In this document: one piece after another, positions 18,438-35,460 of the stretch
Layout of the letters: each line of letters begins with the position of its first letter
Numbering within the stretch: position 1 is the first letter of the stretch
Origin: an uncultured Bacteroidales bacterium
GTDB lineage: Bacteria > Bacteroidota > Bacteroidia > Bacteroidales > UBA932
Direction: 5' to 3'
Length of the DNA: 64,000 nucleotides
Assembly: GCA_949289565.1 (NCBI GenBank)
Contig: CASEOO010000030.1
Location: forward strand, 145,813-209,812
Translations under genes and position numbers: made by a program
Notes under the pieces: model-generated
Told to the model about the DNA's origin: nothing
Databases searched by the model: none
The model's input: only the letters and a program-made list of their open reading frames with translations

Positions 18438-18527
18438 GTATATTTTAGAAAATTCGAAAGTTGGCTGGGCAATTTGTAATAATTAATTAGTAAAATATCA
18501 GCTATTTTATGTATTTCAGCGTTTAAC

Positions 18528-19143: not shown

Positions 19144-19211
19144 TTGCTCCCGATATCCTGATAGGCAACTCCAATCTTTTTACCAAGTCTTGCATTGTAA
19201 TGTCTTGCCAT
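19131..19211 (-). pseudogene. Orphan 26-codon N-terminal gene fragment (MARHYNARLGKKIGVAYQDIGSN...) truncated at the repeat boundary
   Basis: Reading from the ATG at 19211 hits a stop just after crossing the repeat junction at 19143. This is consistent with a gene cut by the rearrangement. Its identity is unknown. Confidence 0.25.
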
Positions 19212-19273
19212 TTATAGATTTTCTGAACTCGTAAAACAGCTGTTCAGATTGTAAATTGACGCAAAGATGGGAT

Positions 19274-20539
19274 TTACGGCTTCAGCAGATTGACAGGTGT
19301 CACGTAAATCCCGTCATCCCTCCGGTATGAAGAACCTGAAGCAGTGAGGACCATCAGGAAATCAGGTGCATTCAGATCGCTTTTCTGAGCTATCTTGTCG
19401 CGGAGCAGTTTCAGGGATTTAGCACCGTCTTCTATAAGCTTTTCGCCTCCGAGTTTGATTTCTATCGCGCCCCATCTTCCGTTTTCAAGATGTATTACGG
19501 CATCACATTCCAGTCCGGCATTGTCTCTATAATGAGAGACAGTCCCTCCGATAGCGTTTGCGTAGATTGACAGGTCCCGGACTGCGAAGTCTTCAAAGAA
19601 CAGCCCGAAACTTTCCAGATCATTTTTCAGGTCATCCGGATTTACACCTAAAGCTCTGCATGCGATAGATGTATCTATGAAATGCCTGGTCGGCGTACTT
19701 CTGATAGAAGTTTTGGACCTTATATTGGGATTCCATGCAGGGAGGTCTTCTATTATATACAAGTCTTTCAATGCTTCCATGTAATCGTCGAATGTTTTCG
19801 GATCCATAGTCCGTTCGTTGCTTTGCCGGACATCGGCTATGATCGTCGAAATGGCTGCTTCAGTGGAAATGTGTCTGGCGTAGCTTCTGATAATCATTTT
19901 CAGAATTTCAGGCTTTTTGTTCCGGAAACGTTCGTTTTCGCAGTCCTCAAATACAAAGAGCCCGTTATAATAGTTTTTGGTGATTTCCAGGGCTATTTCG
20001 TGTGGTGCAAGCACAGATATCGGCCAGCCTCCCCGGCATATCAGGAACGCTATATCATCCAATGTCAGATCATTCTCCATGATCCATGTGAAATTCTGTC
20101 CTCCATCGAACAGATCGCTCAGCGATACTGCTCCTTTCGATTCCCTGGATTCCCACAGGCTCATCGGCCGCATTTTTATCGGAGCTATTCTCCCTGCTCC
20201 GCTATGGTGTACTTCAGTCTTGTCTGCAGGTGTAGAACTGCCGGTCAGTATATATTTCCCGAACTGATACTCGAAGTCAAGGTCATCTTTTATCTGGTTC
20301 CACACGTCAGGAGCTTTTTGCCATTCATCTATCAGCCGTGGCTTCTCTCCTTCCAGTACTGTTTTCGGATTCATCCTGGCTATTGCTATGGCCTGTTTTG
20401 TATTCAGTTTTGTAAAACTTTTCTGATACAGCATGCATGTCGTGGTTTTTCCGCAGAATTTGGGACCTGCCACAACTATTGCACCTGAGGTCTTGAGTTT
20501 CAATTCGATTTCTTTTTCAATTAGCCGGCGGTAATACAT
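19274..20539 (-). CDS. AAA-family ATPase with C-terminal DUF4143-like domain (COG1373-type)
   Basis: 421-aa ORF with Walker A (VVAGPKFCGKTT) and Walker B-like (YILTGSS) motifs. Overall layout is typical of AAA_14/DUF4143 proteins. Confidence 0.8.
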   Translation of the reverse strand: MYYRRLIEKEIELKLKTSGAIVVAGPKFCGKTTTCMLYQKSFTKLNTKQAIAIARMNPKTVLEGEKPRLIDEWQKAPDVWNQIKDDLDFEYQFGKYILTGSSTPADKTEVHHSGAGRIAPIKMRPMSLWESRESKGAVSLSDLFDGGQNFTWIMENDLTLDDIAFLICRGGWPISVLAPHEIALEITKNYYNGLFVFEDCENERFRNKKPEILKMIIRSYARHISTEAAISTIIADVRQSNERTMDPKTFDDYMEALKDLYIIEDLPAWNPNIRSKTSIRSTPTRHFIDTSIACRALGVNPDDLKNDLESFGLFFEDFAVRDLSIYANAIGGTVSHYRDNAGLECDAVIHLENGRWGAIEIKLGGEKLIEDGAKSLKLLRDKIAQKSDLNAPDFLMVLTASGSSYRRDDGIYVTPVNLLKP

Positions 20540-20560
20540 GTGCTTGGATTTTAAGATTTA

Positions 20561-20568
20561 CAAAAATA
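20561..20568 (-). promoter_or_regulatory. -7 promoter box (TATTTTTG) for the ATPase gene
   Basis: Exact TAnnTTTG on the minus strand, 21 nt upstream of the ATG at 20539. Confidence 0.4.
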
Positions 20569-20573
20569 TAAAA

Positions 20574-20613
20574 TTCCCAAGATTTTCAATATGAATTTCC
20601 CAAGATTTTCAAT
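20574..20613. repeat. Two perfect 17-nt direct repeats (TTCCCAAGATTTTCAAT) just upstream of the ATPase promoter
   Basis: Copies at 20574-20590 and 20597-20613, with a 23-nt period. Confidence 0.7.
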
Positions 20614-20753
20614 TTTCGTATCGGCCCGGACAATTGATAGCCATCACTGCCACAATTAGCATACGGGCAAGAACAGGTGTGTACAATCTAATTCCAATTC
20701 CACGAGTATCTTATAGATTTACGATACGTGAGATTTGAAGAATATTAATTCCA

Positions 20754-21355
20754 TGAAAATTGAACATAAAAAACAAAAAACTTAACGCAGAAAAAGAAAA
20801 ACTTTCAGGTGTGAAATTTTGCCTGCAGGTTTTTCTTTTTTTATCTATCGATTCAGAATGCCTTCCATATATTCGCCCTTGTGCTGGCAATCCAGTTGTG
20901 GCTGATTGATATATATTGCAACATATGGTCTGCCTGAAGATAGCAGAACTGGAGCTGGCACAATACGATGTCAAACTTTTAATTCATGTAGATATGGCAA
21001 ACAGTGCAGTAGAAAGCAGACCTGCCGGCAGCAGGCAGGCTGTCGTGCAGAGGTTCTCTCCTGAGGACAGCATTGTCTCTGAATACACTTTCCGTGAAAA
21101 ATCCACGATGATGGTTCCCGATGAGACTATTTTTACTATCTTCGTGGAACTGAACCGCTTCGGGAAGAAACTTGAGGAGTGCGAGACCCTGCTGGACAAA
21201 TGGTGTTTCTCGCTGACGCACATCAACACTCTGGACAAGCTTCCCGACGAGCTGAGGACGGAGGCTTTTGAGCGGCTGTTCAAAGCCTGTGAAATCGCGC
21301 GGTTCGAGCCTGAAGTGAAACTTAAATACGAGAAAGAGATGATCACGGAACGGGA
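20754..21355. repeat. Copy B of the roughly 600-bp direct repeat
   Basis: See copy A. Here the repeat continues in frame into the intact C-terminal part of the Rpn-like ORF. Confidence 0.85.
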
Positions 21356-21527
21356 CTACTACAACATGCTGAATACCGCTAAGGCTGACGGTTTGGCTGC
21401 AGGGTTGGCCGAAGGCGAAGCGAAAGAAAAGATCCGGATCGCCAAAGTTCTTAAGGAACAAGGCGTAGCTGCAAGTATTATTGCCGCCGCTTCAGGGTTG
21501 ACTGAATCACAGATAGCAGAGCTATAA
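20994..21527 (+). pseudogene. N-terminally truncated Rpn-family recombination-promoting nuclease/putative transposase fragment, copy B
   Basis: Same central region as copy A, plus the characteristic C-terminal tail (YYNMLNTAKADGLAAGLAEGEAKEKIRIAKVLKEQGVAASIIAAASGLTESQIAEL). No PD-(D/E)XK N-terminal half is visible upstream in any frame. Confidence 0.6.
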
Positions 21528-21735
21528 GGATTCCAAACCAGGATTTCCAATTGCATTCGAACAAGAACTGGTGCGTTTGAGCTGGTTTATGATCAGCTTT
21601 CGGGTGGATATTGGCAGAGATTCTGCCGAAGCAGAGGAAAGTTGCCATAAAAAGAACATGCCGGAGGATAAAATGAACAAAGTGACGGGATTGACTTTGA
21701 TTTACTCAAGCCAGTCCCGTTTCATTTTTTAGCAG

Positions 21736-21978
21736 TAATGTTGACAATTAGGGATACAATTCGAAGCTATGGGATGGTTAGAGTAAAGTCATTCGTGTAT
21801 AAAATATGCCGATGCATATTTCAGCAGGAAAAATGATATATGTCTGATCCTCCTGTGCTTTAATGAAATTCAAGAAAAATTAACAGAATAATTATTGTTT
21901 ATTACAGTTAAACCCAGTATATTTGAAAATCCCAAAAGTAAAGGCTTAAAAAATAACGATTATAAATTGTCAACATTA
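21736..21978. promoter_or_regulatory. Candidate invertible promoter segment bounded by 14-bp perfect inverted repeats
   Basis: IRL TAATGTTGACAATT (21736-21749) is the exact reverse complement of IRR AATTGTCAACATTA (21965-21978). The 215-bp segment between them holds the only good TAnnTTTG box upstream of the lipoprotein gene. Confidence 0.35.
21918..21925 (+). promoter_or_regulatory. -7 promoter box (TATATTTG) inside the IR-flanked segment, currently pointing at the surface-protein/nuclease locus
   Basis: Exact TAnnTTTG. An ATTG lies 20 nt upstream as a partial -33 element. Confidence 0.4.
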
Positions 21979-22165
21979 ACAATTGCAATGCTTATGGTAC
22001 AAAAATCTATTGATGGAGCCGTCATTTATGAGGCCCCAGTGATGATTTCTGCAGAAGTTTCTGTGGAAAACGGATTCGCGGCAAGCGAAGGAGTAAATTC
22101 CATGTCTCTCGATGCCCCTGACTATGGGGAGGGCGTCACACTCTAATATTATAAGGAGGAAAACC

Positions 22166-24136
22166 ATGAAGAAAATATTGTTTTTATTGGCGGCTTTCGC
22201 CTCAATGGCCGTTGCCTGCCAAGTAGAGGATGTGAATGAGGCCCAGACTCCGGCAGGAGAGACATTCACCATAGAGGCGGCTATCGTTCCATCAACCAAG
22301 ACTTCTCTTACAATAACTGAAGATGCTTACAAGGTAGAGTGGGATGCTGAAGATGAGTTGTCAGTCATAGCGCGATATGATAACGGTGCTGAAGATGCAG
22401 GATATCTTTTCACAAAAGGTGATGGAAATTCTTTCTCTGGAAGTGTGACTGATCCGGGAAATATCAGTGAAATCTATGTGGTATATCCATATGATAAGAA
22501 CCACAATTCTTTCAATGACAATTATAATAATGTTAATGGACGTGTCACGATTGGTTCGGCACATAATGCTAATCAGACACAAAATGGTATAAACAATACT
22601 GATCATATTAATGGTCCGCTTTACGGATATGCACAAGTAGTTGACGGTACGGCAGAAGTGGCTATGAAACATATTTCCACCTTGTTTGAATTGATAGTTA
22701 CAAATAATTCTGGTGACGAAATTAATGTGACTAATGTCAAGTTGGCGAATGACCATGGTAAGGATATGATTGGTACGTTTTACGTAAATCCGGTGACGGA
22801 CTATGTCAGCGCGTCTGGTGCGTCTTATGTTTCGTCAACAGCTTCCCTTGATGTGACAAATGGTACGCTTGCTTCAGGTGCAACAGCTAAATTTTACATC
22901 ACTTCAGCTCCATTTGATTTGGCAGCCGGAGATGAACTGACGGTAACTGTTACTACGAGCGATGGAGCAAGTGCTGCTATAGTGAAGTCTATTCCAAGTG
23001 ATGTGAATTTTGAGGCAGGGAAAGTAAACCATGTCAAAGTTGAAATTGCAGAAGTGAAAGAATTGGAGCCAATGTCTGTGCCAGGAACAGTTCAGTTTGC
23101 CGAAGGGGTTGATATCCCTGAGTATGTCACAATTTCAGACTATGAAACATATAGTGACGGTTCCCTGAAAGTCAATGATGTTGATGACAATGTAGTAGTT
23201 TATGTGGGGTCTGCTGTAGGAAGTGTCACTTTGACAGCAAAATATAATGGGGCAGGTTCTACTCTTGAAATTCTTGGATCGGCGGATGGAAAAGATTATG
23301 TTCACATAGAAAATGTCAATAGTGAAACTGGTCTGACCACTTCTGCCGCTGAATGGAAAACTTCGGCAATTATTAGTCCAGATTACAGGTATTTCAAGTT
23401 CAATCTTACTGAAAAAGTTACAGGAAGTAATGTCAATTTGATAGATATTACATTTAATGAGCCGATTACTGATCCAATTATCAGCTCGGCTGTTTCTTCA
23501 CTAGAATTCGCTTTTGACGATGAAACATCTGGAACTATTCAGTATAGTATTTTAAATGCAGAATATGATGATGTCACAGTGTCATGTGATGAGTCTTTGA
23601 ATGGCTGGTTTACTGCTGAAAAATCAGCTGACGGAGTGATTTCATACACAGTTAATGCAAATGAAGGTGCCGAGAGGTCCGGGAATCTTACAATTTCAGT
23701 AACAGGAGGGAATAGTATCGTTATACCTGTAAGCCAGTCAGCATTTGTCCAGACAGGAGTAGAGCAGAAGGCGATATTTGATTATTCGAATCTTTCAACT
23801 GTAAATGCAACAGTTGATTTGATTACAATAACGGCAGATGCAAATGGAGGAAATCCACCTGCTGTAAATTCAGAGCTTAGGATTTATCGCTATAATAAAT
23901 TTTCGATAGCAGGCACTCAGGAGAATGTTTCTATTAAGTCAATAGTTTTCTCCTTGTCAAGTGCTTCATATTGCGGATATAATTTTGCCTCAGATCCTGC
24001 AGGCTATTCTTTGAATGATACGATTGGAACCTGGACAGGAGATGCAAATGCTGTGATATTTAGCAATGGAGGAGATAAGGACAATAATGTGCAATTCAGG
24101 GTTAAGTCCATTGAGGTGACGTACGTATTGAATTAA
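22166..24136 (+). CDS. Surface lipoprotein with a fimbrillin-like N-terminal region, a BACON-like domain and a C-terminal beta-sandwich-like module
   Basis: Lipoprotein signal with lipobox (MKKILFLLAAFASMAVAC) at the internal ATG 22166. The N-terminal third resembles Bacteroides fimbrillin/Mfa-like lipoproteins. The segment ending ...LTISVTGGNSIVIPVSQSA has the BACON pattern. The gene is visibly more AT-rich than its neighbours. Confidence 0.7.
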   Translation: MKKILFLLAAFASMAVACQVEDVNEAQTPAGETFTIEAAIVPSTKTSLTITEDAYKVEWDAEDELSVIARYDNGAEDAGYLFTKGDGNSFSGSVTDPGNISEIYVVYPYDKNHNSFNDNYNNVNGRVTIGSAHNANQTQNGINNTDHINGPLYGYAQVVDGTAEVAMKHISTLFELIVTNNSGDEINVTNVKLANDHGKDMIGTFYVNPVTDYVSASGASYVSSTASLDVTNGTLASGATAKFYITSAPFDLAAGDELTVTVTTSDGASAAIVKSIPSDVNFEAGKVNHVKVEIAEVKELEPMSVPGTVQFAEGVDIPEYVTISDYETYSDGSLKVNDVDDNVVVYVGSAVGSVTLTAKYNGAGSTLEILGSADGKDYVHIENVNSETGLTTSAAEWKTSAIISPDYRYFKFNLTEKVTGSNVNLIDITFNEPITDPIISSAVSSLEFAFDDETSGTIQYSILNAEYDDVTVSCDESLNGWFTAEKSADGVISYTVNANEGAERSGNLTISVTGGNSIVIPVSQSAFVQTGVEQKAIFDYSNLSTVNATVDLITITADANGGNPPAVNSELRIYRYNKFSIAGTQENVSIKSIVFSLSSASYCGYNFASDPAGYSLNDTIGTWTGDANAVIFSNGGDKDNNVQFRVKSIEVTYVLN

Positions 24137-24272
24137 TAGTTAAATACATCGCAGTATAACTCAACTCATGGGGCGGAACCGGGAGGTCCTGCCCCTAAAT
24201 TAACAAAAGACGTGGCGGTTTCCGGCGGTGTTGACGGCGGAAATACGGATAGACGTAAAATTTTATAAAATT

Positions 24273-26300
24273 ATGAAAATCAGAAATTTGTTTTTTATTG
24301 GTTTCGCGGCATTGTCTCTTGCCGCGGCCTGTGATAAGAAGGAAGATGGCCTGACGGGCTCGCCTTCCATAAGCCTGAGCACCGATGCCGTCGAATTTGA
24401 ACAGACGGCAGATTCTGAAAACATTACTCTGTCTGCCAACAGGGACTGGGTGGTGCAGGTGCCGGAAAGCGCATCGGAATGGCTGTCAGTCTCTCCTGCC
24501 AGCGGAGCGGCTTCCGGTGATCCTCAGACAGTCGCCATAACAGTCAAAGAGAATACCGGGGCGAACAGGTCTGCAAAACTCGAATTCAATGCATCTCTGG
24601 TTTCTGCCACTCTCACTGTCAGCCAGGCAGGTCCTGAAGGAGATATTAGCGGAGCCAGCTTGACTGTCGCTGAATTTATAGAAAAGCCTGAAGATCCGTC
24701 TGTATATTATCAGCTGACAGGCGAGATTACTGACCTGTACAATGAGACGTTTGGAAACTTCACATTGGTCGACAAGACAGGTTCTGTCAGCGTTTACGGA
24801 CTGACTGCCACCCAGCAATCGGAAAATGACAAGAGCTTCGCTTCTCTTGGCTTGAAAGAGGGTGATTATGTGACCCTTATGGGTGTGAGGTCTTCTTTTG
24901 AAGGCAAGCCTCAGGTAGGCGGTCCTGCATACTATGTTTCGCACACTTCATTCGATGACATGGATGCCATTGAACTGGCTTCGATTGCAGAAGTTTACAC
25001 TACTGATGCCGTGAAAGTGTCTGTAAAAGGCCAGGTCGTAGCGGCAGGAAATGTAAGTTTTGTCCTGAACGATGGAGGTGACAAGAGCCTGTATGTATAC
25101 TCAAACAAGACTCCGGGTGTCACCGTCGGTGACAATGTGAAAGTGACGGGCCAGGTAGCTGTTTATCCTGGATATGTAAATCCAGGCGTTACTATCGGCA
25201 CCAAAATGACGCAGATAGCATCTCCGACAGTAGAGAAAATATCAGAAACTCTGACCCCGGCGGCTCAGACTCCTAAAGAGCTGTCAGGTGCAGAACTGGC
25301 GTCTTTCTCATCAGAGTCGACACAGCTTGTCAAAGTAAGCGCCACTGTACAGGTGTCAGAAGGCCATACGAATCTGGTCTTCGACAATAATGGCGGCACC
25401 GGGTCTGTAGTCTCTTCTTCATTTGATTCCCAGATTTCAGATGGAGACAAACTTATAATCACCGGATACTACGGAGGAAGGAACGGCAGAGGATATTTCA
25501 ATATACTTCCGACAGATATCCAGGACAATAATGGCCCGTATTTGACAGTCTCCACGAAAACTGTTAATGTCGGCGCGGCGGCAGGAACTGCAAAATTCGA
25601 TATCAAAGGAAATGTAGCCTGGACAGCGGTGTCATCTGACGATGCCAATTTCTCTTTGTCTGCCGGGCAGGGCACAGGCAGTGAGCCGATTACCGTGACA
25701 TATACGGCCAATGAGTCTGAGGATTCCCCGAGGACAGCCACTATCACAGTTTCCACTGAAGACGCATCAGTGGCAGAAGCTGACAGAACCCATACGATTA
25801 CAATAACTCAAAGTGCGAAGACAGCCCAGTCTGATGTTATAGTATTGAACGGAGAAAGTTTAGGCATAGGCTCAGGAAGCTATGCAAATAGCCCTGAAAC
25901 TGCTGATTGCGGAGGTGTTTCTTTCAGTATTAATGATATGATGCTGAATCAGAGCGATGGCACAGTAGGCATATTCAGAGAACAATTTATACAGATGAGA
26001 AAAAGTTCTGGAAAATTGTACAATACTACACCAGTAGCTCTTAAGTCTTTGAAAATTTATGTTTTGCCAGAAAAAGACGGATTCAAGATAATGACAGGAA
26101 CTGAAGCCCAGCCTGCAACTGAGGCGGAGAAGTCCATGTCAACAGAAACGGTGACAGTAACAGGGTATGTGAATAAAGAGGAAGTGCCTGGGCAGCAGGT
26201 TGAACTTAATGTTTATACCGTAGATGTATCAGACTCTCCACAATATTTTTCCATCGAAGCTACAGCTACTCTGTGGGTATATAAAATTGAAATCCAATAA
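24273..26300 (+). CDS. Surface lipoprotein with BACON - OB-fold-like - OB-fold-like - BACON architecture
   Basis: Lipobox (FAALSLAAAC) at the internal ATG 24273. BACON-like segments end ...ATLTVSQAG and ...HTITITQSA. Two segments resemble the OB-fold modules of extracellular nucleases: LTVAEFIEKPEDPSVYYQLTGEITDLYNETFGNFTLVDKTGSVSVYGL and SIAEVYTTDAVKVSVKGQVVAAGNVSFVLNDGGDKSLYVY. Confidence 0.7.
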   Translation: MKIRNLFFIGFAALSLAAACDKKEDGLTGSPSISLSTDAVEFEQTADSENITLSANRDWVVQVPESASEWLSVSPASGAASGDPQTVAITVKENTGANRSAKLEFNASLVSATLTVSQAGPEGDISGASLTVAEFIEKPEDPSVYYQLTGEITDLYNETFGNFTLVDKTGSVSVYGLTATQQSENDKSFASLGLKEGDYVTLMGVRSSFEGKPQVGGPAYYVSHTSFDDMDAIELASIAEVYTTDAVKVSVKGQVVAAGNVSFVLNDGGDKSLYVYSNKTPGVTVGDNVKVTGQVAVYPGYVNPGVTIGTKMTQIASPTVEKISETLTPAAQTPKELSGAELASFSSESTQLVKVSATVQVSEGHTNLVFDNNGGTGSVVSSSFDSQISDGDKLIITGYYGGRNGRGYFNILPTDIQDNNGPYLTVSTKTVNVGAAAGTAKFDIKGNVAWTAVSSDDANFSLSAGQGTGSEPITVTYTANESEDSPRTATITVSTEDASVAEADRTHTITITQSAKTAQSDVIVLNGESLGIGSGSYANSPETADCGGVSFSINDMMLNQSDGTVGIFREQFIQMRKSSGKLYNTTPVALKSLKIYVLPEKDGFKIMTGTEAQPATEAEKSMSTETVTVTGYVNKEEVPGQQVELNVYTVDVSDSPQYFSIEATATLWVYKIEIQ

Positions 26301-26314
26301 TTGTTTCCTTATCG

Positions 26315-26352
26315 TCAAAGGGACGTCCATGCTTGGGCATCCCTTTGATTTT
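26315..26352 (+). terminator. Terminator-like hairpin after the BACON/OB-fold lipoprotein gene
   Basis: 9-bp stem TCAAAGGGA (26315-26323) pairs with TCCCTTTGA (26340-26348). 16-nt loop, then TTTT. Confidence 0.45.
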
Positions 26353-26369
26353 CAATCAGAACAGAAAGA

Positions 26370-27542
26370 ATGCCGGAACATTTGAGAATAAGGATCATTA
26401 CATGGCTGGCGGCATGCTTCGCGGCGTTGCCGATGATTGTTTCATGTGAGCAAGATATCATTTCCACTCCGGAAGTCTCCATTGCCGAAAATTCGGCAGG
26501 GGCTGAGGCCGGGTATACTGTCGTGGACGTGTCGGCTTCCGGCGCGTGGCTGCTGTCTCTGTATTATCCTGACGGGGCGGAGCCTTGGGCCGGGCTGACT
26601 TCAACACAGGGCAGCGGAAGCAAAGACGGCATTATCCTGAGCTATGGGGAAAATCCGTCAGAGGAGAGCCGTACACTCAAGGTTATATTGTCAGCTTCAG
26701 GGTATGACCTGGCTGTGACTTTTACGCAGGAAGGGCGGACTGCAGCCGGCGATGAACCTGAACCGGAGCCAGACCCGGAGCCTGGACCTGGCCCGGTGGC
26801 AGGCCCGGGGTGGCTGGAACTTCCTGAATTGGCAGAGACTGAGGCCTGCCATTTTTACTGGCACGACATGACCCAGCAGAACGGGAAGAGAGTCAGGAAT
26901 TATTCTTTCCTGTGGGACAAGGAGAACCTGGTGGCTCATTGGGTGGCTTATCCTCTTAACAAAAGACTGATAGGCAGCGGCGACCGTTCTGAAGCCTGGG
27001 GATACGACCCGAAAGTCCCTGTGGAGGACCAGCCGGAATTGTACCGTGGCTATCGCGGCGGCTATGACAGAGGCCATCAGCTTCCGTCGGCTGACAGATA
27101 TACTGACAACGAGTCCACGTTTTATTTTACGAATATGACACCTCAGATCGGAACCGGATTCAACCAGAGTGTCTGGGCAGATTTAGAGATCCAGGTACGA
27201 GACTGGTCGTATTCGTCAGATACACTTTATGTCGTGACCGGCTGTGTCCTTGAAGGCAGTCTCGGAAAGGCTTATGACAATCTCGGCAAGGAAGTCACCA
27301 TCCCTGGCGGATATTTCAAGGCTCTTCTCTGGTACAACCATGCTTCTACCATGAGTTTCGGGCAGTGGTCGGCCGCGGGCTTTTATTTCGAGCATAAGTC
27401 GGGAGCGTCCCGCCAGACAATGTCTATCGATGACCTGGAGGAAATCACCGGAATCGACTTTTTCGTGAATCTGCCTGCGAGGATTGGCCAGGATGCGGCG
27501 GACAGAATCGAGGCGGCGGAACCTGGCGCCTTCTGGAATTGA
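26370..27542 (+). CDS. Lipoprotein DNA/RNA non-specific endonuclease (beta-beta-alpha-Me, Serratia NucA family) with N-terminal BACON-like domain
   Basis: Lipobox (PMIVSC), a BACON-like segment (...LAVTFTQEG) and a Pro/Glu-rich linker. The catalytic DRGHQ motif is at 27066-27080 (YRGGYDRGHQLPSADR), followed by FYFTNMTPQ. Confidence 0.85.
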   Translation: MPEHLRIRIITWLAACFAALPMIVSCEQDIISTPEVSIAENSAGAEAGYTVVDVSASGAWLLSLYYPDGAEPWAGLTSTQGSGSKDGIILSYGENPSEESRTLKVILSASGYDLAVTFTQEGRTAAGDEPEPEPDPEPGPGPVAGPGWLELPELAETEACHFYWHDMTQQNGKRVRNYSFLWDKENLVAHWVAYPLNKRLIGSGDRSEAWGYDPKVPVEDQPELYRGYRGGYDRGHQLPSADRYTDNESTFYFTNMTPQIGTGFNQSVWADLEIQVRDWSYSSDTLYVVTGCVLEGSLGKAYDNLGKEVTIPGGYFKALLWYNHASTMSFGQWSAAGFYFEHKSGASRQTMSIDDLEEITGIDFFVNLPARIGQDAADRIEAAEPGAFWN

Positions 27543-27649
27543 ACTTCGTGCTGATGGTGACATTGACCGGAATTTCCGGTCAATGCAGTAAAATTATTGC
27601 CCGGAAGGGCACATGAAATCTAATCTGTCTAACAGACGTTTTGCAATTT

Positions 27650-28720
27650 ATGAGAAAATTAGCTATCCTCTTGACAGTCTTTCTGGTTTCGTTGCCGGCG
27701 GTTTTCGCCCAGGACCAGAAAAGGACTTGCGTCGTAGGTTTCTACAATCTTGAAAACCTCTTCGACATATATGATGACCCGGCCAAGAATGACGAGGAAT
27801 TCCTCCCTGACGGGAAAAACCAGTGGACCGAGGTGAAATATCAGAAAAAACTTCACAATATGGCGGCTGTGATACGGTCGATGGCCGAGACTAACGGACG
27901 TTTTCACTCTGTTTTGGGTGTAAGCGAGGTAGAGAACCGTCTTGTTCTCGAGGACCTGGTCAGCCAGCCTGAGATAGCTGATGCGAATTATCAGATAGTG
28001 CACTATGACGGCCCTGACACCAGGGGTATAGATGTCGGCCTGCTTTACCGTCCAAACCAGTTCAAGCTTCTGGACAGCGAGTCCATACCGTTTGATTTCG
28101 GCAGCGCGAAGATAGAATTTGCCATGGAAGGCGAAGACAGGGTGAAGTTCAAGACCAGGGACATACTGATGGCGCATGGTCTTCTCGACGGCGAGGAGTT
28201 CGCTTTCTATGTGGCTCATCTGCCTTCACGTATTGGTGGCAAGGGCTGGGACTTGAGAAGCCGTGGAGCAGAGATTATCTATGAGCATGCTATGGAGATG
28301 ATGAAAAAGTATCCCGGCATCAAGATAGTGGTGATGGGCGACATGAACGACAATCCTGTAGACATCAGCATGACAGAATTCATGCATGGAAAAGAGAAGC
28401 CGGAGCAGGTGGGAAAAGATGATTTCTTCTCTCCGTTCATGTCCATGCTGAAAGCAGGCTACGGCTCGCTGGCGTATCAGGGCACATGGAACATCTATGA
28501 CATCATACTCGTGAACGAGTCCCTGCTGAATGCCCCGGACGGCGGTTTCAAAATCCGTCCTGTGGGCAAAAGAGGCTTCTACGGCGTGATATACAAGAAA
28601 AATTTCATGATTCAGCAGCGAGGCCAGTATAAGGGCACGCCGTTCAGGACTTTCTCGAACGGGGCGTTCATAGGCGGATACAGCGACCATCTCCCGACAT
28701 ACATTGTACTGGAAAAATGA
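27650..28720 (+). CDS. Secreted endonuclease/exonuclease/phosphatase (EEP) family protein
   Basis: Signal peptide (MRKLAILLTVFLVSLPAVFAQ). N-terminal catalytic block GFYNLENLFD and C-terminal GGYSDHLP block typical of EEP nucleases. I prefer the ATG at 27650 over the TTG at 27641. Confidence 0.85.
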   Translation: MRKLAILLTVFLVSLPAVFAQDQKRTCVVGFYNLENLFDIYDDPAKNDEEFLPDGKNQWTEVKYQKKLHNMAAVIRSMAETNGRFHSVLGVSEVENRLVLEDLVSQPEIADANYQIVHYDGPDTRGIDVGLLYRPNQFKLLDSESIPFDFGSAKIEFAMEGEDRVKFKTRDILMAHGLLDGEEFAFYVAHLPSRIGGKGWDLRSRGAEIIYEHAMEMMKKYPGIKIVVMGDMNDNPVDISMTEFMHGKEKPEQVGKDDFFSPFMSMLKAGYGSLAYQGTWNIYDIILVNESLLNAPDGGFKIRPVGKRGFYGVIYKKNFMIQQRGQYKGTPFRTFSNGAFIGGYSDHLPTYIVLEK

Positions 28721-28789
28721 CAGGGACCATATAGCTGTCCGAAATATGCAGAAATGCGATTTGCAGGATAGCAGAATAGAATTTTAACA

Positions 28790-31700
28790 ATGGAAAATAT
28801 GTACAGAAAATTATTGCCAATCTTAATGGCGGCGATATTCATCCTGCCTCAGACAGCGGCGGCGCAAGACAGGCAGAAAACCTACGGTGGCAGGATAGAG
28901 TGGTACCAGAATCCTGTTTCCGGCAGGGAAGGCGGAGTGAAGGGAACAGTGGTGAACAGGAACGGAAGGGTGCCTGTAGCAGATGCCGTAGTGGCTCTCT
29001 ACCATGGCGATGAGCTGATAGCGAGGGCGTCCCTGGATGAGAGCGCGCAGTTTCTTTTTTCAGATATAGACAATGGCGACTACCGGCTGGTGGTGGGCGC
29101 TCCAGGGTTCAACAGCACTGAAGTAAATGTGAAAGTAGAGGGGTTCGTCCGGGACCTCGTCTTCGTCTCGCTGGTGTCAGCGCAGAAGACTATGACTGAA
29201 TTCGATGAGTCCAGCTTCATGGAATTCGACATGGATGATTCTGGATACGATGACGCTCCCTCGCTGCTGTACGGGAACGATGTATACTCAAATATTGCCG
29301 GGTACGGCTTCAGCGCCATCAGGTTCAAGAACAGGGGATATGCCAGCGAGTCCCAGGAAGTGTATCTGAGCGGAGTGAAGATGAACGATGCAGTCACTGG
29401 ATACACTCCATGGTCTCTGTGGAGCGGCTTGAACGAGGCGATGAGGAGCAAGGAGACCACCATCGGCAACGAGGTATATGACTATGGCTTCGGCGGATAC
29501 AACGGTGTGACCAATATCCTCGCCACCCCTTCCAGTGTGCGGAAAGGCTGGAGGTTCAGCGCTTTGACGAACAGTGCCCTGTATCGTTTCAGGCTGATGG
29601 CCACCTATGCTTCAGGCGAGCTGGACAACGGCTGGTCCTATGCTTTCAATGTATCTGCCCGCCTTGGCGGCAATGACTGGGTGAAAGGTATCTACTACCG
29701 TTCGTTCGCCTACTATGCCGGAGTCGAGAAGAAATTCGGCGACATGCACAGGCTCAGCCTCGTGGCTTTCGCCTCACCGACGAACAGAGGTGCCCAGAAT
29801 GCGTCCACACAGGAAGTCTATGACCTGGTAGGAGACAACATGTACAACTCGAACTGGGGCTATCAGGACGGAAAGCTCCGCAATGCCCGTGTCCGCAAGA
29901 CACACGAGCCGGTCTTCATCCTGAAATATACTGCCACCCCTCTGGACAATCTCGAAGCCTCAGCCACAGTCACCTACAGAACGGGAAAGAACGGATACAC
30001 TGCTCTCGACTGGTATGACACTTACGACCCGAGACCTGACTACTACAGGAATCTCCCGAGCTATTTCTGGATGCAGGATTCAGACTACGGCAGAAACAGC
30101 TATGAAAAATATGCATGGGCGCAGGAAGCTTGGCTGACTAACTACAACAGCACCCGCCACATAAATTGGGACAGGCTTTACAATGTGAACAGCCACAATC
30201 TCGATGCAGATGGGTTAGGCCGTTCTAAATATATCATCGAAGAACGCCGGACAGACCAGAACGACATAAATCTGAACGGAAGCGTGAAATGGCAGGCTAA
30301 GGACTGGGTCACATTGACCGGAGGCCTTAACTGGAGATGGAACAAGACTGAATATTACAAGATTGCAGACGACCTGCTCGGAGGAGATTACTACATAAAT
30401 ATCGACCAGTTCGCCGAGCGTGATTTCGCTTCCGACCCGGCCATGATACAGAATGATTTGGATTATTATTTTGCAAACGGTTCTGCACAGAGGCTTTTTG
30501 CCGGGGACAAGTACGGATATGATTACTTCGCAAATGTACGTGACGCCGAGATCTGGGCGAACGCGTCTTTTGAAAAAGGACATTTCCGCGGCTATGCCGC
30601 TTTGCAGGGCGGTTATTCCAAGTTCTGGAGAGACGGAGTCTACAGAAAAGGCCTTTTTGCCGGCCTGGATGAAAACGGCAACGAAATAATAAGCCCTGCC
30701 ACGGGCAATGTCCTGACTGTCTATGACAAAGACGGGAAGGCCATCACTTCTAAGGGCCGCTCGGACGTGGCTGACTTTTTCACGTATTCCGCCAAGATAG
30801 GAGCCAGCTGGTTTTTCACCGGAGGACACCGGGTGTATGCGAATGCAGGATATTTCAACGATGCCCCTACATTCAACCAGTCATTCATATCTCCGAGAAC
30901 CAGGAACACGCTGGTGCCGAACCTGACCACTACGAAGACCGTGTCGGCCGACATCAACTATACCTACAGCAACAACGGCTACGATCTCCGCCTGACGGGA
31001 TTCTGGACTAAAATCATGGACCAGACCGACATGATGAGCTTCTATGACGATTCTCAGAATTCTTTCACGAATTTCGCGATGACCGGCATAGACCAGAGGC
31101 ATATGGGCATAGAACTCGGTTTCGAAATTCCTCTTTATCTCCAGAATGTCTTTCTCCAGGGTGTGCTGAGCTGGGGCGAGTATATCTACACTTCGACTCC
31201 GCATATGACACAGACGATAGACAACAGTGCTGAAGTCATCATCGACAACCAGCCTGTGACCTACTGGAAGAGCCATCCGATATACAGGAAGACCACAGTG
31301 GACGGCATCGTGACTTACGACAAGGACGCCGGAGGAAACTATATCCTCGAAAAGGACCAGAAGCACTATGTGCCGAGCACGCCTCAGCTGGCCGCCGACC
31401 TGGGAATCCGCTACCGCAGCAATTCATACTGGTTTGTCGAGCTGAACGGACAGTTTTTCGCCCATTCGTATCTCGACATGAACCCGCTGTACAGGACCAT
31501 GACTGCTGTCGCCGGTCCTGACAATGCGATGACTGACGCTGCTCTCGAAGAGCACAGCAGGAACTGGTTCCTGAATGAGACCATTCAGGACAATATGGGC
31601 CTGTCTCCGCAGGAAATTGAATATATGGCCGCCCAGGAGGAATTCGATCCTGTATTCTTGCTGAATGCCAGCGTGGGCAAGTCATGGTATATAGACAGAA

Positions 31701-31885
31701 AGTACAATTTCGGCTTTTCTCTTGAGGTGAAAAACATTCTGAACAACAGGAATGTGAAGACAGGAGGCTACGAGCAGACCCGTCTGATCGACAGCGAAAG
31801 CCGGACCAGGTATTATCGGTTCGACCCGAAATATTTCTACATGAGCGGAGTCAATTATATGCTGAATTTGTATTTCCGTTTCTGA
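28790..31885 (+). CDS. TonB-dependent transporter with carboxypeptidase-regulatory-like N-terminal domain
   Basis: 1031-aa ORF with a signal peptide (ILPQTAAAQ), a CarboxypepD_reg-like segment (GTVVNRNGRVPVADAVVALYHGDE ... YRLVVGAPGF), a plug-like region (YLSGVKMND) and a C-terminal LNLYFRF. Confidence 0.85.
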   Translation: MENMYRKLLPILMAAIFILPQTAAAQDRQKTYGGRIEWYQNPVSGREGGVKGTVVNRNGRVPVADAVVALYHGDELIARASLDESAQFLFSDIDNGDYRLVVGAPGFNSTEVNVKVEGFVRDLVFVSLVSAQKTMTEFDESSFMEFDMDDSGYDDAPSLLYGNDVYSNIAGYGFSAIRFKNRGYASESQEVYLSGVKMNDAVTGYTPWSLWSGLNEAMRSKETTIGNEVYDYGFGGYNGVTNILATPSSVRKGWRFSALTNSALYRFRLMATYASGELDNGWSYAFNVSARLGGNDWVKGIYYRSFAYYAGVEKKFGDMHRLSLVAFASPTNRGAQNASTQEVYDLVGDNMYNSNWGYQDGKLRNARVRKTHEPVFILKYTATPLDNLEASATVTYRTGKNGYTALDWYDTYDPRPDYYRNLPSYFWMQDSDYGRNSYEKYAWAQEAWLTNYNSTRHINWDRLYNVNSHNLDADGLGRSKYIIEERRTDQNDINLNGSVKWQAKDWVTLTGGLNWRWNKTEYYKIADDLLGGDYYINIDQFAERDFASDPAMIQNDLDYYFANGSAQRLFAGDKYGYDYFANVRDAEIWANASFEKGHFRGYAALQGGYSKFWRDGVYRKGLFAGLDENGNEIISPATGNVLTVYDKDGKAITSKGRSDVADFFTYSAKIGASWFFTGGHRVYANAGYFNDAPTFNQSFISPRTRNTLVPNLTTTKTVSADINYTYSNNGYDLRLTGFWTKIMDQTDMMSFYDDSQNSFTNFAMTGIDQRHMGIELGFEIPLYLQNVFLQGVLSWGEYIYTSTPHMTQTIDNSAEVIIDNQPVTYWKSHPIYRKTTVDGIVTYDKDAGGNYILEKDQKHYVPSTPQLAADLGIRYRSNSYWFVELNGQFFAHSYLDMNPLYRTMTAVAGPDNAMTDAALEEHSRNWFLNETIQDNMGLSPQEIEYMAAQEEFDPVFLLNASVGKSWYIDRKYNFGFSLEVKNILNNRNVKTGGYEQTRLIDSESRTRYYRFDPKYFYMSGVNYMLNLYFRF

Positions 31886-31929
31886 AATGCCTGTCAAAGT
31901 AAAATTTACATAAATAATTTCAAGTTCAG

Positions 31930-33018
31930 ATGAAAAGAATATTCAATATAAAACTGACCGCCGCGGCAATGCTTTCTTCTGCTCTGATTTTGAGTTCCTG
32001 CGAGGAATTCACGCCTGTTTTCACCGGCAAATATCCGGAGCCTGAGCAGTGGAGTCCTGTGGAGATGGTTGTTACGCATACGATAGCTGAGCTGGCGGGA
32101 ATGTACACTCCAGGGAAGGCTTTCGAAATAGAGGACGCCATAGTGATTTCCGGGAAAGTATCCACTTCGGACCAGGCCGGAAACTTCTACCGCAGCCTGT
32201 ATATCCAGGATGAGACAGGAGGTATAGAGCTCAAAATGGGCAAGACGGGGCTGTACAACGAATACAAGCCAGGGCAGACTGTATATGTGGCATGCAAGGG
32301 CCTCTGGCTTGGGATGTACGGATATGACGATGATGAAGCATACGGCGGTGCCGGCATGGTGCAGCTTGGATTTGAAGATCCGACAGGGGAATACGAGACA
32401 TCATACATTGAGGTGCAGTATCTGATAGACCAGCATATCTTCCGCGGGGAAACCGGAGAGCCGGTGGAGCCTGTGGCTGTCGCAGAGCAGGACCTGCCTG
32501 GACAGTGGGATACGCAGGCAGACAACCAGTATGTAGGAAGGCTTGTGACCCTCAGCGGGCTGACATACGGGAACGAGATTTTCACTCTGCTGTATGTGAA
32601 TCCGAATCTGGATCACAAGACATCAGGCAACAGAGTCTTCCTGTCTGACCAGACTCATGGAGTGACTACATGGGCTATGAGCGAGCAGAAAGTGAAAGAG
32701 CATCTGCAGGCAGGCGACTGGGACGCTGTCTATATCGGCAATTCAAGAGATTATACATATGGCACAGTTGGCGATGCCAAGAATAAGGAAACTCTTTTGA
32801 AATATGCCGCCCCGGCGAATGTCAGCCAGTATTTCAAGATGGGTGAAAAAGAGATACAGATCCGTACCAGCGGGTATTGCCGTTTCGCTGACCTGGAAAT
32901 CGATCCTGACGTGCTGGCCGGGAAAAAGACCATTGATGCGACGGGTGTCCTGACTATGTATCAGGGCAACATCCAGTTCGTGCTTCTTGACCAGACAGGT
33001 GTCAAAGTCAACGAGTAG
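31930..33018 (+). CDS. DUF5689-like OB-fold surface lipoprotein (sits where SusD would be)
   Basis: Lipobox (ALILSSC). The segment TIAELAGMYTPGKAFEIEDAIVISGKVSTSDQAGNFYRSLYIQDETGGIELKMGK is typical of the DUF5689/nuclease-type OB fold. Lies directly downstream of the transporter. Confidence 0.65.
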   Translation: MKRIFNIKLTAAAMLSSALILSSCEEFTPVFTGKYPEPEQWSPVEMVVTHTIAELAGMYTPGKAFEIEDAIVISGKVSTSDQAGNFYRSLYIQDETGGIELKMGKTGLYNEYKPGQTVYVACKGLWLGMYGYDDDEAYGGAGMVQLGFEDPTGEYETSYIEVQYLIDQHIFRGETGEPVEPVAVAEQDLPGQWDTQADNQYVGRLVTLSGLTYGNEIFTLLYVNPNLDHKTSGNRVFLSDQTHGVTTWAMSEQKVKEHLQAGDWDAVYIGNSRDYTYGTVGDAKNKETLLKYAAPANVSQYFKMGEKEIQIRTSGYCRFADLEIDPDVLAGKKTIDATGVLTMYQGNIQFVLLDQTGVKVNE

Positions 33019-33128: not shown

Positions 33129-33136
33129 TACCTTTG
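33129..33136 (+). promoter_or_regulatory. -7 promoter box (TACCTTTG) for dcp
   Basis: Exact TAnnTTTG 39 nt upstream of the ATG at 33175. Confidence 0.4.
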
Positions 33137-33174: not shown

Positions 33175-35460
33175 ATGACCAGAAAATTTTTGTTTTCAGG
33201 CATAGCATTGATTATGATGTCTTGCAGCAATTTGAATCCCTTCTTCGGGGAGTGGGACACTCCATACGGGATTCCTCCTTTCGAGGAGATTTCAGAAAAA
33301 GATTACCTCCGCGCCGTAAAGTTCGGAATTCATCAGCAGTCTGCTGAAGTGGACGCCATCATTGCGCGGGACGCGGCTCCTACATTCGAAAATACGATAG
33401 CGGCATATGAATATTCAGGTGAGGTCCTCGACAGGGCGTTGCTGGTGCTTTTCAATCTGGCGGAGAGCGATGCCACGCCTGCTCTTCAGAAAGTCGTGGA
33501 CAAGGTGATTCCTCTGCTTACCGAGCATACTGACAATATTTTCATGAATCCTTATTTTTTCGAGAGGGTGAAAGCCGTGTATGACCGGAGAGATTCTTCT
33601 GGCCTGACTTCTGAGCAGATCAGGCTGACTGAGAAGATATATCGGCAGTTCCTGTCGAACGGTGTTTCTCTTGATGCCGCAGGTCAGGCCAGGATGAGGG
33701 AGATAAACAGTGAACTGGCGGCGCTGGAGCAGACATTCGGAAACAATCTCCTCGCGGAGACCAATGCCTTCACTATGCTCCTGACAGATTCTTCGGAAGT
33801 AGCCGGACTGCCGGAAGCCGTGCTGCATTCGGCCGCGTCAGAGGCTTCAGCCGCCGGCATTTCTGCCAAGGCGGCCGCCCGGCTGAAGAATATCGATGAA
33901 AGTGCGGTGGCTCCAGGCGGACCATGGCTTTTCACCCTTCAGAATGCGAGCTATGTGCCGTTCATGACATACAGCGCAAACAGGGAGCTGCGCGAAAAGA
34001 TGTTCAATGCATATTCTTCGAGAGGAAATCATGGCAACGACAGGGACAACAAGGACATCGTTGTGAAAATAATGTCTCTGCGGATAGAGAAGGCGAAGCT
34101 TCTGGGGTATGATACACCGGCGGCATTCATCCTTTCTGACAAGATGGCTGGAAATTCCGCCGCAGTGGATGTTTTTCTGGAGAGGATTTTTGATGCCGGA
34201 GTGGCCAGGGCCAAGGAAGAGGCTGCTGATTTGCAGGCAGTGATGAACGCAGACGTGGAAGCTGGACTGCTCCCGGATGACAGCACCTCAGTGATACGTC
34301 CGTGGGACTGGGCTTATTATGCTGAGAAAGTCCGTGTGGCAAAGTACGCGATAGACGAGTCTGCTGTGAAGCCTTATTTCAAAATGGAGAATGTCAGGGA
34401 GGGGGTCTTCAGCACCGCTCATAAATTGTACGGCCTGAACTTCGAGAAACTGGACAGTATTCCTGTTTATCATCCGGATATGGAGGGGTTCAAGGTGACT
34501 GATGCCGACAGTTCGCTGGTGGGCATCCTGCTGACAGACTATTATCCGCGCAGCACCAAGCGTGGCGGTGCCTGGATGACTAATTTCCGGTATCAGCAGA
34601 TTTCCGCTGACGCCGAAGATGTCCGCCCGATAGTCTGCAATGTCGCCAATTTTACGAAACCGGCGGCTGGCAAGCCATCGCTTCTTACTCAGGATGAGGC
34701 GGCAACGATGTTCCATGAATTCGGTCATGCATTGCACGGGCTTCTGAGCCAGTGCACATATAAGGATATGAGCGGGACGAATGTCACGAGGGATTTTGTG
34801 GAGCTGCCGTCGCAGCTGAATGAAAACTGGGCGTTCCAGCCTGAGGTTCTTTCCATGTATGCGCGCCATTATGAGACTGGAGAGATGATTCCGGATTCAT
34901 TGGTGTCCAAAATCAGGGATGCAGGCAAGTTCAACCAAGGGTTCATGACGTCAGAGCTGGCCGCGGCTTCGATTCTGGATATGAGATGGCATGAGCTGAC
35001 TTCCGTATATGTCCCTTCTGACTGTCAGTTTGCATCATCCGTTCCTGCTCCAGAGGGTGCTGAACCTGCGTTTTTAGTGATTGGCGGAAAGAAAATTCCT
35101 ACTGGGGAGGCTGAGGATCTGATGGTGATAGATCCTGTGAAGTTCGAGGCGGCCATGATGAAAGAGGCCGGTCTGATAGACGAGATTATCCCGCGCTACA
35201 GGACGACATATTTCAATCATATTTTCAAAGGCGGGTACAATGCCGGCTACTACAGCTATCTATGGGCAGAGGTCCTCGACAAGGATGCTTTCGAGCTTTT
35301 CCTCAGGCGCGGCATCTTCGACAGCCGTACCGCCATGTCTTATCGCCGCAATATTCTGGAGAAAGGCGACAGTGAAGATCCGATGACTCTGTACAAGAAA
35401 TTCCGTGGCGCCGAGCCGGATCCGGACGCACTTCTTCGTGCACGCGGGCTTGATAATTAA
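33175..35460 (+). CDS. dcp: M3 family peptidyl-dipeptidase (Dcp-like)
   Basis: 761-aa ORF with the zinc motif HEFGHALH and lipoprotein-like signal LIMMSC. An insertion of about 40 aa relative to what I expect for Dcp lies near SVYVPSDCQF...EAEDLMVID. Confidence 0.85.
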   Translation: MTRKFLFSGIALIMMSCSNLNPFFGEWDTPYGIPPFEEISEKDYLRAVKFGIHQQSAEVDAIIARDAAPTFENTIAAYEYSGEVLDRALLVLFNLAESDATPALQKVVDKVIPLLTEHTDNIFMNPYFFERVKAVYDRRDSSGLTSEQIRLTEKIYRQFLSNGVSLDAAGQARMREINSELAALEQTFGNNLLAETNAFTMLLTDSSEVAGLPEAVLHSAASEASAAGISAKAAARLKNIDESAVAPGGPWLFTLQNASYVPFMTYSANRELREKMFNAYSSRGNHGNDRDNKDIVVKIMSLRIEKAKLLGYDTPAAFILSDKMAGNSAAVDVFLERIFDAGVARAKEEAADLQAVMNADVEAGLLPDDSTSVIRPWDWAYYAEKVRVAKYAIDESAVKPYFKMENVREGVFSTAHKLYGLNFEKLDSIPVYHPDMEGFKVTDADSSLVGILLTDYYPRSTKRGGAWMTNFRYQQISADAEDVRPIVCNVANFTKPAAGKPSLLTQDEAATMFHEFGHALHGLLSQCTYKDMSGTNVTRDFVELPSQLNENWAFQPEVLSMYARHYETGEMIPDSLVSKIRDAGKFNQGFMTSELAAASILDMRWHELTSVYVPSDCQFASSVPAPEGAEPAFLVIGGKKIPTGEAEDLMVIDPVKFEAAMMKEAGLIDEIIPRYRTTYFNHIFKGGYNAGYYSYLWAEVLDKDAFELFLRRGIFDSRTAMSYRRNILEKGDSEDPMTLYKKFRGAEPDPDALLRARGLDN

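Follow-up and report, generated by a model that had tools for sequence, protein, structure and literature searches.

Can a locus that is organised like a polysaccharide utilisation locus (PUL), but that contains nucleases instead of glycan-degrading enzymes, serve the utilisation of extracellular nucleic acid, and, if so, is such a system already known? These questions are raised by a cluster of six genes, here called g1 to g6, in a DNA stretch of 64,000 nt (the window) from an uncultured Bacteroidales bacterium (assembly GCA_949289565.1, contig CASEOO010000030.1, positions 145,813 to 209,812 of the forward strand). A previous reading of the DNA without database searches (the sequence-only reading) had proposed that the six genes encode a surface machine that binds extracellular DNA or RNA, cuts it, and imports the fragments, and that such a system had not been characterised before. 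The computational analysis reported here indicates that positions 24273–33018 are likely to represent a ddb-type DNA utilisation locus of an uncultured gut Bacteroidales similar to Candidatus Cryptobacteroides. The system as such is already known, and the locus in the window is a further case in an uncultured lineage.

Identity of the locus

All six co-directional open reading frames (ORFs) were present on the forward strand, and the coordinates given below for g1 to g6 correspond to the most plausible starts. Inspection of the leaders revealed signal peptides of the lipoprotein type (signal peptidase II, SPII) for g1, g2, g3, and g6, and of the signal peptidase I (SPI) type for g4 and g5. In agreement with the sequence-only reading, none of the six products had a Pfam match to SusD, glycoside hydrolase, or regulator families. 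SusD and glycoside hydrolases were also absent from the neighbouring genes that were scanned, and thus the combination of a SusC/SusD pair with carbohydrate-active enzymes, which defines a canonical PUL, is missing.

A PUL-like system for DNA has been described in Bacteroides thetaiotaomicron (Sharan et al., PNAS 2025, PMC12478041). The locus ddbABCDEF encodes the lipoprotein nucleases DdbA and DdbF, the SPI nuclease DdbB, the predicted TonB-dependent transporter DdbC, the DUF5689 protein DdbD, which resembles the DNA-binding HIN domain of p202, and DdbE, an SPII protein of unknown function that was proposed to bind the substrate (PMC12478041). DNase activity was shown for DdbA, DdbB, and DdbF, and the locus is needed for the depletion of exogenous DNA and for the production of uracil and xanthine, both in vitro and in mice (PMC12478041). 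The authors made the analogy to PULs explicit, surveyed ddb-like loci across the Bacteroidota, and defined four subtypes (PMC12478041). The genes BT3560-3563 of strain VPI-5482 had been described earlier, and variant strains were noted to encode a protein with a BACON domain (PMC8851478). DdbC and DdbD are homologous to RA0C_RS04915 and RA0C_RS04920 of Riemerella anatipestifer, which are also adjoined by a gene for a ddbB-like nuclease (PMC12478041). Already in 2021, RA0C_RS04915, in which only PF13620 is recognised, and the DUF5689 protein RA0C_RS04920 were both found to be essential for natural transformation (PMC8459023).

The locus in the window was assigned to the ddb type because its gene content and Pfam signature match those of ddbABCDEF and of the Riemerella pair. 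Judged by position, signal type, and domains, g5 would correspond to DdbC and g6 to DdbD, while g4 would have the role of DdbB, g3 that of DdbF or DdbA, and g2 that of DdbE. The proposed function, i.e. binding, cutting, and import of extracellular DNA, is well supported by domain, fold, and synteny evidence, and it is essentially the published ddb model (PMC12478041). The claim of novelty had to be given up, as the ddb locus was characterised in 2025 (PMC12478041) and the transporter/DUF5689 pair had been tied to DNA uptake in 2021 (PMC8459023). That a system experimentally established only in 2025 had been read from the raw sequence speaks in favour of that reading and at the same time removes its novelty.

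The predicted transporter g5 and its putative partner g6

The gene g5 (28790–31885) encodes a protein of 1031 amino acids with an SPI-type leader, and this size agrees with the approximately 900–1030 amino acids of DdbC-type transporters. CarboxypepD_reg (PF13620) was the sole Pfam family matched, and this N-terminal domain also matches the N-terminal extension of a SusC homologue (9hfj). Profile searches of the PDB with 13 or 50 relatives of g5 yielded a match to the N-terminal domain plus a marginal match to OprC (E=0.012, with the 50-member profile). Some close homologues of g5 do have precomputed PF00593 matches. An AlphaFold2 model that was built on 50 diverse relatives had a predicted local distance difference test score (pLDDT) of 86.7 and a predicted template modelling (TM) score of 0.81. 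When the PDB was searched with this model in Foldseek, TonB-dependent transporters made up nearly all of the top 50 matches (E values of 1e-25 to 1e-20), including PqqU (3e-25), Fiu, YncD, FhuA, FecA, OprC, and BtuB. The alignments comprised 856–1021 columns, mostly about 880–915, and the target TM score was about 0.6–0.7 for most of them. Because the model matches solved TonB-dependent transporters, the designation of g5 in the sequence-only reading holds, but, judged by this model, g5 is a TonB-dependent transporter at the level of the fold only. The fold-level architecture consists of CarboxypepD_reg, a disordered linker, a plug, and a beta-barrel. The linker in front of the plug (residues 132–162) had a pLDDT below 50 and carries the acidic motif F-x-E-F-D-M-x-D-S-G, which is kept within the clade but not across the whole family.

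The g5 family is large, with 809 representatives (50% clustering) at E<=1e-30 across the Bacteroidota. g5 shares 59% identity with the representative of its own cluster, and its identity to the full-length representatives of the other 50% clusters does not exceed 43%. The published rule for the ddb subtypes asks for more than 50% identity and more than 75% coverage to one of the references Bt1 (WP_008762511.1), Bt2 (WP_055220680.1), Pv1 (WP_005843284.1), or Pv2 (WP_117829583.1) (PMC12478041). Because of the low identity to the other clusters, g5 probably belongs to a distinct clade outside the four named subtypes. The window contains a further gene with a CarboxypepD_reg domain, which lies on the reverse strand and diverges from the locus (15093–18392). 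It encodes an outer membrane protein (OMP) of 1099 amino acids with OMP_b-brl_4 and a weak match to TonB_dep_Rec. When the g5 family was compared with this OMP by hhalign, the N-terminal domain alone could be aligned.

The gene g6 (31930–33018) begins 44 nt past the end of g5 and encodes a lipoprotein (lipobox ILSSC with Cys24, followed by EE) that matched DUF5689 with an E value of 1.5e-39. A DUF5689 lipoprotein at the place where SusD would be encoded had been predicted correctly. A homologue of g6 lies directly 3' of the transporter gene in every related and distant locus examined, and its protein is thus a candidate for a DdbD-like DNA-binding lid or partner of g5 in the position of SusD. 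The exact g6 protein was found on metagenome contigs only.

The predicted nucleases g3 and g4

The product of g3 (26370–27542) is a lipoprotein (lipobox MIVSC, Cys26) in which a BACON domain, which gave a weak Pfam match, is connected by the Pro/Glu linker DEPEPEPDPEPGPGP to an Endonuclease_NS domain (2.7e-38). The best relatives in the PDB are NucA from Anabaena (1zm8/2o3b, 5e-18) and EndoG. The DRGHQ motif is encoded by nucleotides 27066–27080 (residues 233–237) and aligned with NucA, and the metal-ligand Asn lies within TNMTPQ at residue 254. All features that had been described for g3 in the sequence-only reading were thus found. The gene is kept in all related loci. The sequence makes g3 a candidate for a surface non-specific DNA/RNA endonuclease of the beta-beta-alpha-Me type.

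The gene g4 (27650–28720) encodes a protein with an SPI signal peptide (leader ...PAVFA/QD) and without a lipobox, which matched Exo_endo_phos_3 over the full length (1.6e-92). This agrees with the predicted secreted EEP nuclease. The protein is 63–97% identical in all related loci, and an EEP gene adjoins the transporter gene also in three distant loci (L089, L092, and L093, see below). By sequence, g4 would be a nuclease/phosphatase of the EEP superfamily in the role of DdbB.

The OB-fold lipoprotein g2

The gene g2 (24273–26300) encodes a lipoprotein (lipobox LAAAC, Cys20) with two BACON domains (2.7e-14) and sub-threshold Pfam matches to the OB families RMI2 (5.8e-5) and tRNA_anti-codon (PF01336, 3.2e-4). 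Two OB-fold-like modules between two BACON modules had been proposed. The OB folds and the flanking BACON domains could be substantiated, but the number of OB modules turned out to be three. In the AlphaFold2 model (pLDDT 82.7), modules of OB topology are found at residues of about 145–225, 248–322, and 350–418, each of which consists, according to DSSP, of beta1-3, a helix, and beta4-5, and the whole set lies between the two BACON domains. A C-terminal beta-sandwich follows the second of them. The three modules are mutually homologous (hhalign 96–99.7%), and the first is homologous to residues 49–129 of the DUF5689 protein g6 (hhalign 94.4%, E value of 8.9e-8). Among the 33 members of the g2 family, PF01336 was found in 28 (best 6.6e-14), RMI2 in 24, and DUF5689 in 6 (2e-63).

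Because its tandem OB folds are homologous to the N-terminal module of a DdbD-like protein, g2 is a concrete candidate for the protein responsible for DNA binding. By analogy, it may be the DNA-capturing surface protein, a role that was suggested for DdbE in analogy with SusE/F. In this clade, the ddb protein of unknown function would thus be a tandem OB-fold protein that is akin to the N-terminal module of DdbD.

Conservation and distribution

Conservation was quantified with species-level loci from the best 80 genome matches to g5 (62–95% identity). These were metagenome-assembled genomes from chicken, ruminant, horse, and human sources, and nearly all of them belonged to uncultured Bacteroidales (many Candidatus Cryptobacteroides), Muribaculaceae, and Rikenellaceae. 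None of the 80 was labelled Bacteroides or Phocaeicola, and three of the bins bore other labels. The genes g3-g4-g5-g6 were co-linear in 69 loci, and the other 11 were interrupted by contig ends. This arrangement is far beyond chance. For 61 loci, 2.3 kb or more of sequence upstream of the nuclease gene was available for analysis. In 60 of these a BACON lipoprotein gene lies directly upstream, and OB-like modules were detectable in its product in 46 of 61 with single-sequence phmmer. In some of these upstream lipoproteins, BACON domains flank a DUF5689 N-terminal module, and two genes of this kind are present in many loci. The conservation of the gene neighbourhood was thus verified for g3 to g6 and for a g2-type gene, but not for g1.

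More distant loci were also found. In Alistipes (locus L092, transporter 39% identical), the gene order is that of the window, i.e. BACON-DUF5689 lipoprotein, Endonuclease_NS, EEP, transporter, and DUF5689. A very abundant lineage (L089, transporter 34% identical, cluster of 2571 members) has a divergent EEP gene, followed by the genes for the transporter, DUF5689, BACON-DUF5689-LTD, and BACON-Endonuclease_NS. The locus of a Tenuifilaceae genome (L093) consists of EEP, transporter, DUF5689, and a second DUF5689 protein, without the endonuclease. In summary, ddb-type loci with a fixed five-gene core extend across a large uncultured gut lineage, comprising Cryptobacteroides and relatives, into Alistipes.

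In addition, a two-gene module was observed in another species (L083–L088), in which a gene for an OB-fold protein of 643–660 amino acids (faint PF01336/RMI2 matches) is followed by one for a BACON-Endonuclease_NS protein. A DdbC/DdbD-like pair was not found within the 10-kb flanks of this module.

The probable insertion carrying g1 and the apparent exchange of modules

The first gene of the cluster, g1 (22166–24136), encodes a lipoprotein (lipobox, Cys18) with a borderline BACON match (23.6–25.5 bits), an unassigned N-terminal half, and a C-terminal module. It had been described as a fimbrillin-like/BACON lipoprotein, and of this description the lipobox and, as a borderline case, the BACON domain remain. 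The fimbrillin-like character found no support, as residues 1–345 had no match to a fimbrillin HMM at E<=10, none of 74 relatives had one, and no fimbrillin was found in the PDB by sequence for the N-terminal half. A C-terminal module shared between g1 and g2 had also been proposed. This was rejected, as the relation was undetectable both with BLAST (E=9.4) and in a profile-profile comparison with hhalign (probability 1.3%).

The G+C content of g1 is 0.40, and that of its third codon positions is 0.31, compared with about 0.6 for g3 to g7. The gene is part of a stretch with a G+C content of 0.42 (18490–24270). This stretch is missing in locus L013, in which the homologues of g2 and of the upstream OMP gene (15093–18392) are immediate neighbours. 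The stretch also contains a gene for a DUF4143/AAA_14 ATPase (19274–20539, reverse strand) and a PDDEXK_2 transposase-like fragment (20916–21527), and it looks like a recent insertion. g1 was found in two related loci only. Over about 17 kb, one locus (L001) shares 98–99% identity with the window, yet its allele of g1 is alignable to g1, at 70% identity, over the first 0.9 kb only. Relatives of the N-terminal half occur in unrelated gene neighbourhoods. Because of the low G+C content, the variable insertion, the divergent allele, and the unrelated contexts of its relatives, g1 is probably an accessory surface lipoprotein and not a core component.

Variation was also found within g2. The C-terminal module (25826–26314, the last approximately 160 codons) is unalignable in L001, and in a further locus (L003) g2 is 99% identical, compared with 73–95% for the neighbouring genes (73–74% for g3 and g6). 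As g1 and the C-terminal module of g2 are swapped between near-identical genomes, exposed lipoproteins appear to be exchanged at the level of modules, and this suggests a cassette-like recombination of exposed parts. Pressure from phages or antibodies may drive the exchange, as may different specificities for nucleic acids or partners. It is tempting to speculate that g2-type proteins are the dedicated surface DNA capturers of this clade, and that diversifying exchange between strains acts on them rather than on the transporter, but we regard this as doubtful at present.

Proposed mechanism and alternative explanations

The following mechanism is proposed. g2, with three OB folds between two BACON domains, and g6 would capture extracellular DNA, and possibly RNA, via their OB folds. 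The BACON-tethered lipoprotein nuclease g3 would cleave the DNA to oligonucleotides at the surface of cells or vesicles. The fragments would be imported by the divergent TonB-dependent-type transporter g5, which g6 would cap in the same way as SusD caps SusC. In the periplasm, the fragments would be broken down further by g4, which has a signal peptide for SPI-dependent export and is probably periplasmic. In this scheme, the transport by g5, its dependence on TonB, the topology of the proteins, and the fate of the products are presumed. RNA may also be taken up, because g3 belongs to a type of nuclease that is non-specific for DNA and RNA.

Several observations are at odds with this mechanism or with the assignment to the ddb type. 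g5 did not match Plug (PF07715) or TonB_dep_Rec (PF00593) even at E<=10, a canonical TonB box was not recognised in the linker (residues 132–162), and the proposed homology of g5 and DdbC is based on the shared Pfam signature, the adjacent DUF5689 gene, and the family search rather than on a direct alignment. The strict motif for lipoprotein export, C(x/xx)(D/E)(D/E) (PMC12478041), does not occur in g2, g3, and g6; among the four lipoproteins, g1 alone fits it. G+C-rich hairpins are found in the intergenic regions g1/g2 (24137–24272), g2/g3 (26301–26369), and g3/g4 (27543–27649), and the hairpin 3' of g2 has the sequence AAAGGGA...TCCCTTTG and is followed by ATTTTC. Because the hairpins separate these genes, the co-transcription of g1 to g4 is uncertain, but they may also be attenuators or processing sites inside a presumed operon. 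In addition, DNA is a poor sole source of carbon, nitrogen, or phosphorus for B. thetaiotaomicron (PMC12478041), and therefore nutrient acquisition is perhaps not the physiological point of the system. A scan for sigma-70 promoters is ill-suited to Bacteroidota. The Bacteroidota -7 motif TAnnTTTG precedes g1 and the M3 peptidase gene that follows the locus (see below), and it also occurs inside g1, some 290 nt in front of g2. An Rfam scan of 18–36 kb revealed no regulatory RNA.

Three other explanations were weighed against DNA degradation and import. As the main alternative, the locus could encode an outer membrane apparatus for DNA uptake in natural transformation, which, as in Riemerella, would deliver long DNA to ComEC/DprA and not to catabolism. 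R. anatipestifer indeed depends on its homologues of the g5/g6 pair for transformation (PMC8459023), a gene for a ddbB-like nuclease adjoins that pair, too (PMC12478041), and the g5 family is large and occurs throughout the Bacteroidota. However, all related genomes have two nucleases fixed in the locus, a surface-tethered non-specific endonuclease and another one of the SPI type, which favours degradation, and genes for ComEC, DprA, or ComEA-like proteins were not found among the scanned ORFs of the window. Because the two nucleases are fixed in the locus, transformation is the less likely reading, and we consider it improbable. The surface nuclease could also have its main role in the remodelling of extracellular DNA in biofilms or matrices, or in the evasion of DNA traps, and the transporter would then be secondary. 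The pair of an OB lipoprotein and a BACON-Endonuclease_NS protein that another species has without a nearby transporter would fit such a role. The genes for the nuclease, EEP, transporter, and DUF5689 proteins are strictly linked in the 80 genomes and in distant lineages, and this points to coupled degradation and import instead. As a main role, remodelling is therefore very unlikely; it is compatible with DNA import, and the two are not mutually exclusive.

Lastly, the genes could form a glycan utilisation locus, in which the BACON and beta-sandwich modules bind carbohydrate and the nucleases are incidental neighbours. BACON was originally named as a putative carbohydrate-binding domain, CBM_4_9 was present in 3 of 33 relatives of g2, and whole-chain Foldseek of g2 retrieved sialidase and carbohydrate-binding module entries, next to RPA70 (4gop_C). 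These Foldseek matches had TM scores of about 0.12 and are uninformative; multi-domain chains such as g2 are better searched by domain. The central modules of g2 are OB folds according to the family matches (PF01336 in 28 and DUF5689 in 6 of 33 relatives) and the RPA70 match. Whether they might be carbohydrate-binding modules had been posed as a check of the sequence-only reading, and the outcome did not go against that reading, as OB families are found in most relatives. Moreover, genes for a glycoside hydrolase, for SusD, or for functions related to sugars are missing from the locus, and the nucleases are invariant partners. A glycan utilisation locus is therefore hardly credible, and the utilisation of DNA by a ddb-type locus remains the preferred explanation.

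Other genes of the window

The locus is followed by a gene for an M3 peptidase lipoprotein (Dcp-like, 33175–35460, PF01432 with 1.8e-119), which is found directly downstream in most genomes of the Cryptobacteroides clade. The gene was not accepted as a seventh member of the system, because a TAnnTTTG motif of its own precedes it (at 33129) and the loci of Alistipes and the L089 lineage lack it. The linkage is probably a matter of synteny rather than of function.

Further downstream, a single ORF of 1624 amino acids (44134–49008) fuses a DEAD/Helicase_C module (helicase superfamily 2) with a UvrD-type helicase module (superfamily 1). Two ORFs precede it (42013–42804 and 43229–44056), neither of which has a Pfam match. 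A protein of 561 amino acids (52209–53894) has an N-terminal CarboxypepD_reg domain and BACON_2 (4.9e-21) without a barrel, which is an unusual pairing.

Comparison with known systems

The locus shares its general organisation with classical PULs (SusC/SusD, SusE/F, and SusG), i.e. surface binders, a surface hydrolase, a TonB-dependent transporter that is paired with a lipoprotein, and hydrolases in the periplasm. BACON domains would serve as spacers in both cases, and an N-terminal CarboxypepD_reg extension is present on the transporter as on SusC. In contrast to classical PULs, the locus lacks SusD with its tetratricopeptide repeats, a glycoside hydrolase, and a hybrid two-component or extracytoplasmic function (ECF) regulator, the barrel and the plug of its transporter are too diverged for Pfam, and the substrate would be nucleic acid. 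The surface nuclease g3 has the DRGH motif and the metal-ligand Asn in common with Anabaena NucA, the Serratia nuclease, and EndoG (PF01223). It differs from the NucA family by its lipid anchor, the N-terminal BACON domain, and the Pro/Glu linker.

The Riemerella pair RA0C_RS04915/RA0C_RS04920 is similar to g5/g6 in that CarboxypepD_reg alone is recognised in the OMP, the adjacent gene encodes a DUF5689 protein, and a ddbB-like nuclease is encoded nearby. In contrast to g6, the Riemerella DUF5689 protein has an additional DUF5017 (choice-of-anchor J) domain, and a surface Endonuclease_NS protein or an OB/BACON lipoprotein was not reported for the Riemerella locus (PMC8459023, PMC12478041). Furthermore, the function that was shown in Riemerella is transformation and not degradation.

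The closest counterpart is ddbABCDEF. Both loci are PUL-like without SusD, both have a gene for a divergent TonB-dependent-type transporter with a DUF5689 lipoprotein gene directly downstream, and both encode an SPII lipoprotein nuclease, an SPI nuclease, and an SPII protein that putatively binds the substrate. The steps of the model are also the same, namely binding, cutting outside of the cell, import, and cutting in the periplasm. However, in the window the transporter gene is preceded by those for the binding protein and the nucleases, so that the gene order differs, the number of nucleases is two instead of three, and the candidate binder is a BACON/triple-OB/BACON lipoprotein. In addition, the host is an uncultured, Cryptobacteroides-like bacterium, and its locus is known from sequence alone. 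Taken together, the modestly new points compared with the known system are the distinct clade of the transporter, the tandem OB-fold identity of the binder, and the module-level exchange of exposed lipoproteins, and these could guide the biochemistry of DNA capture and of the delivery of DNA to the transporter.

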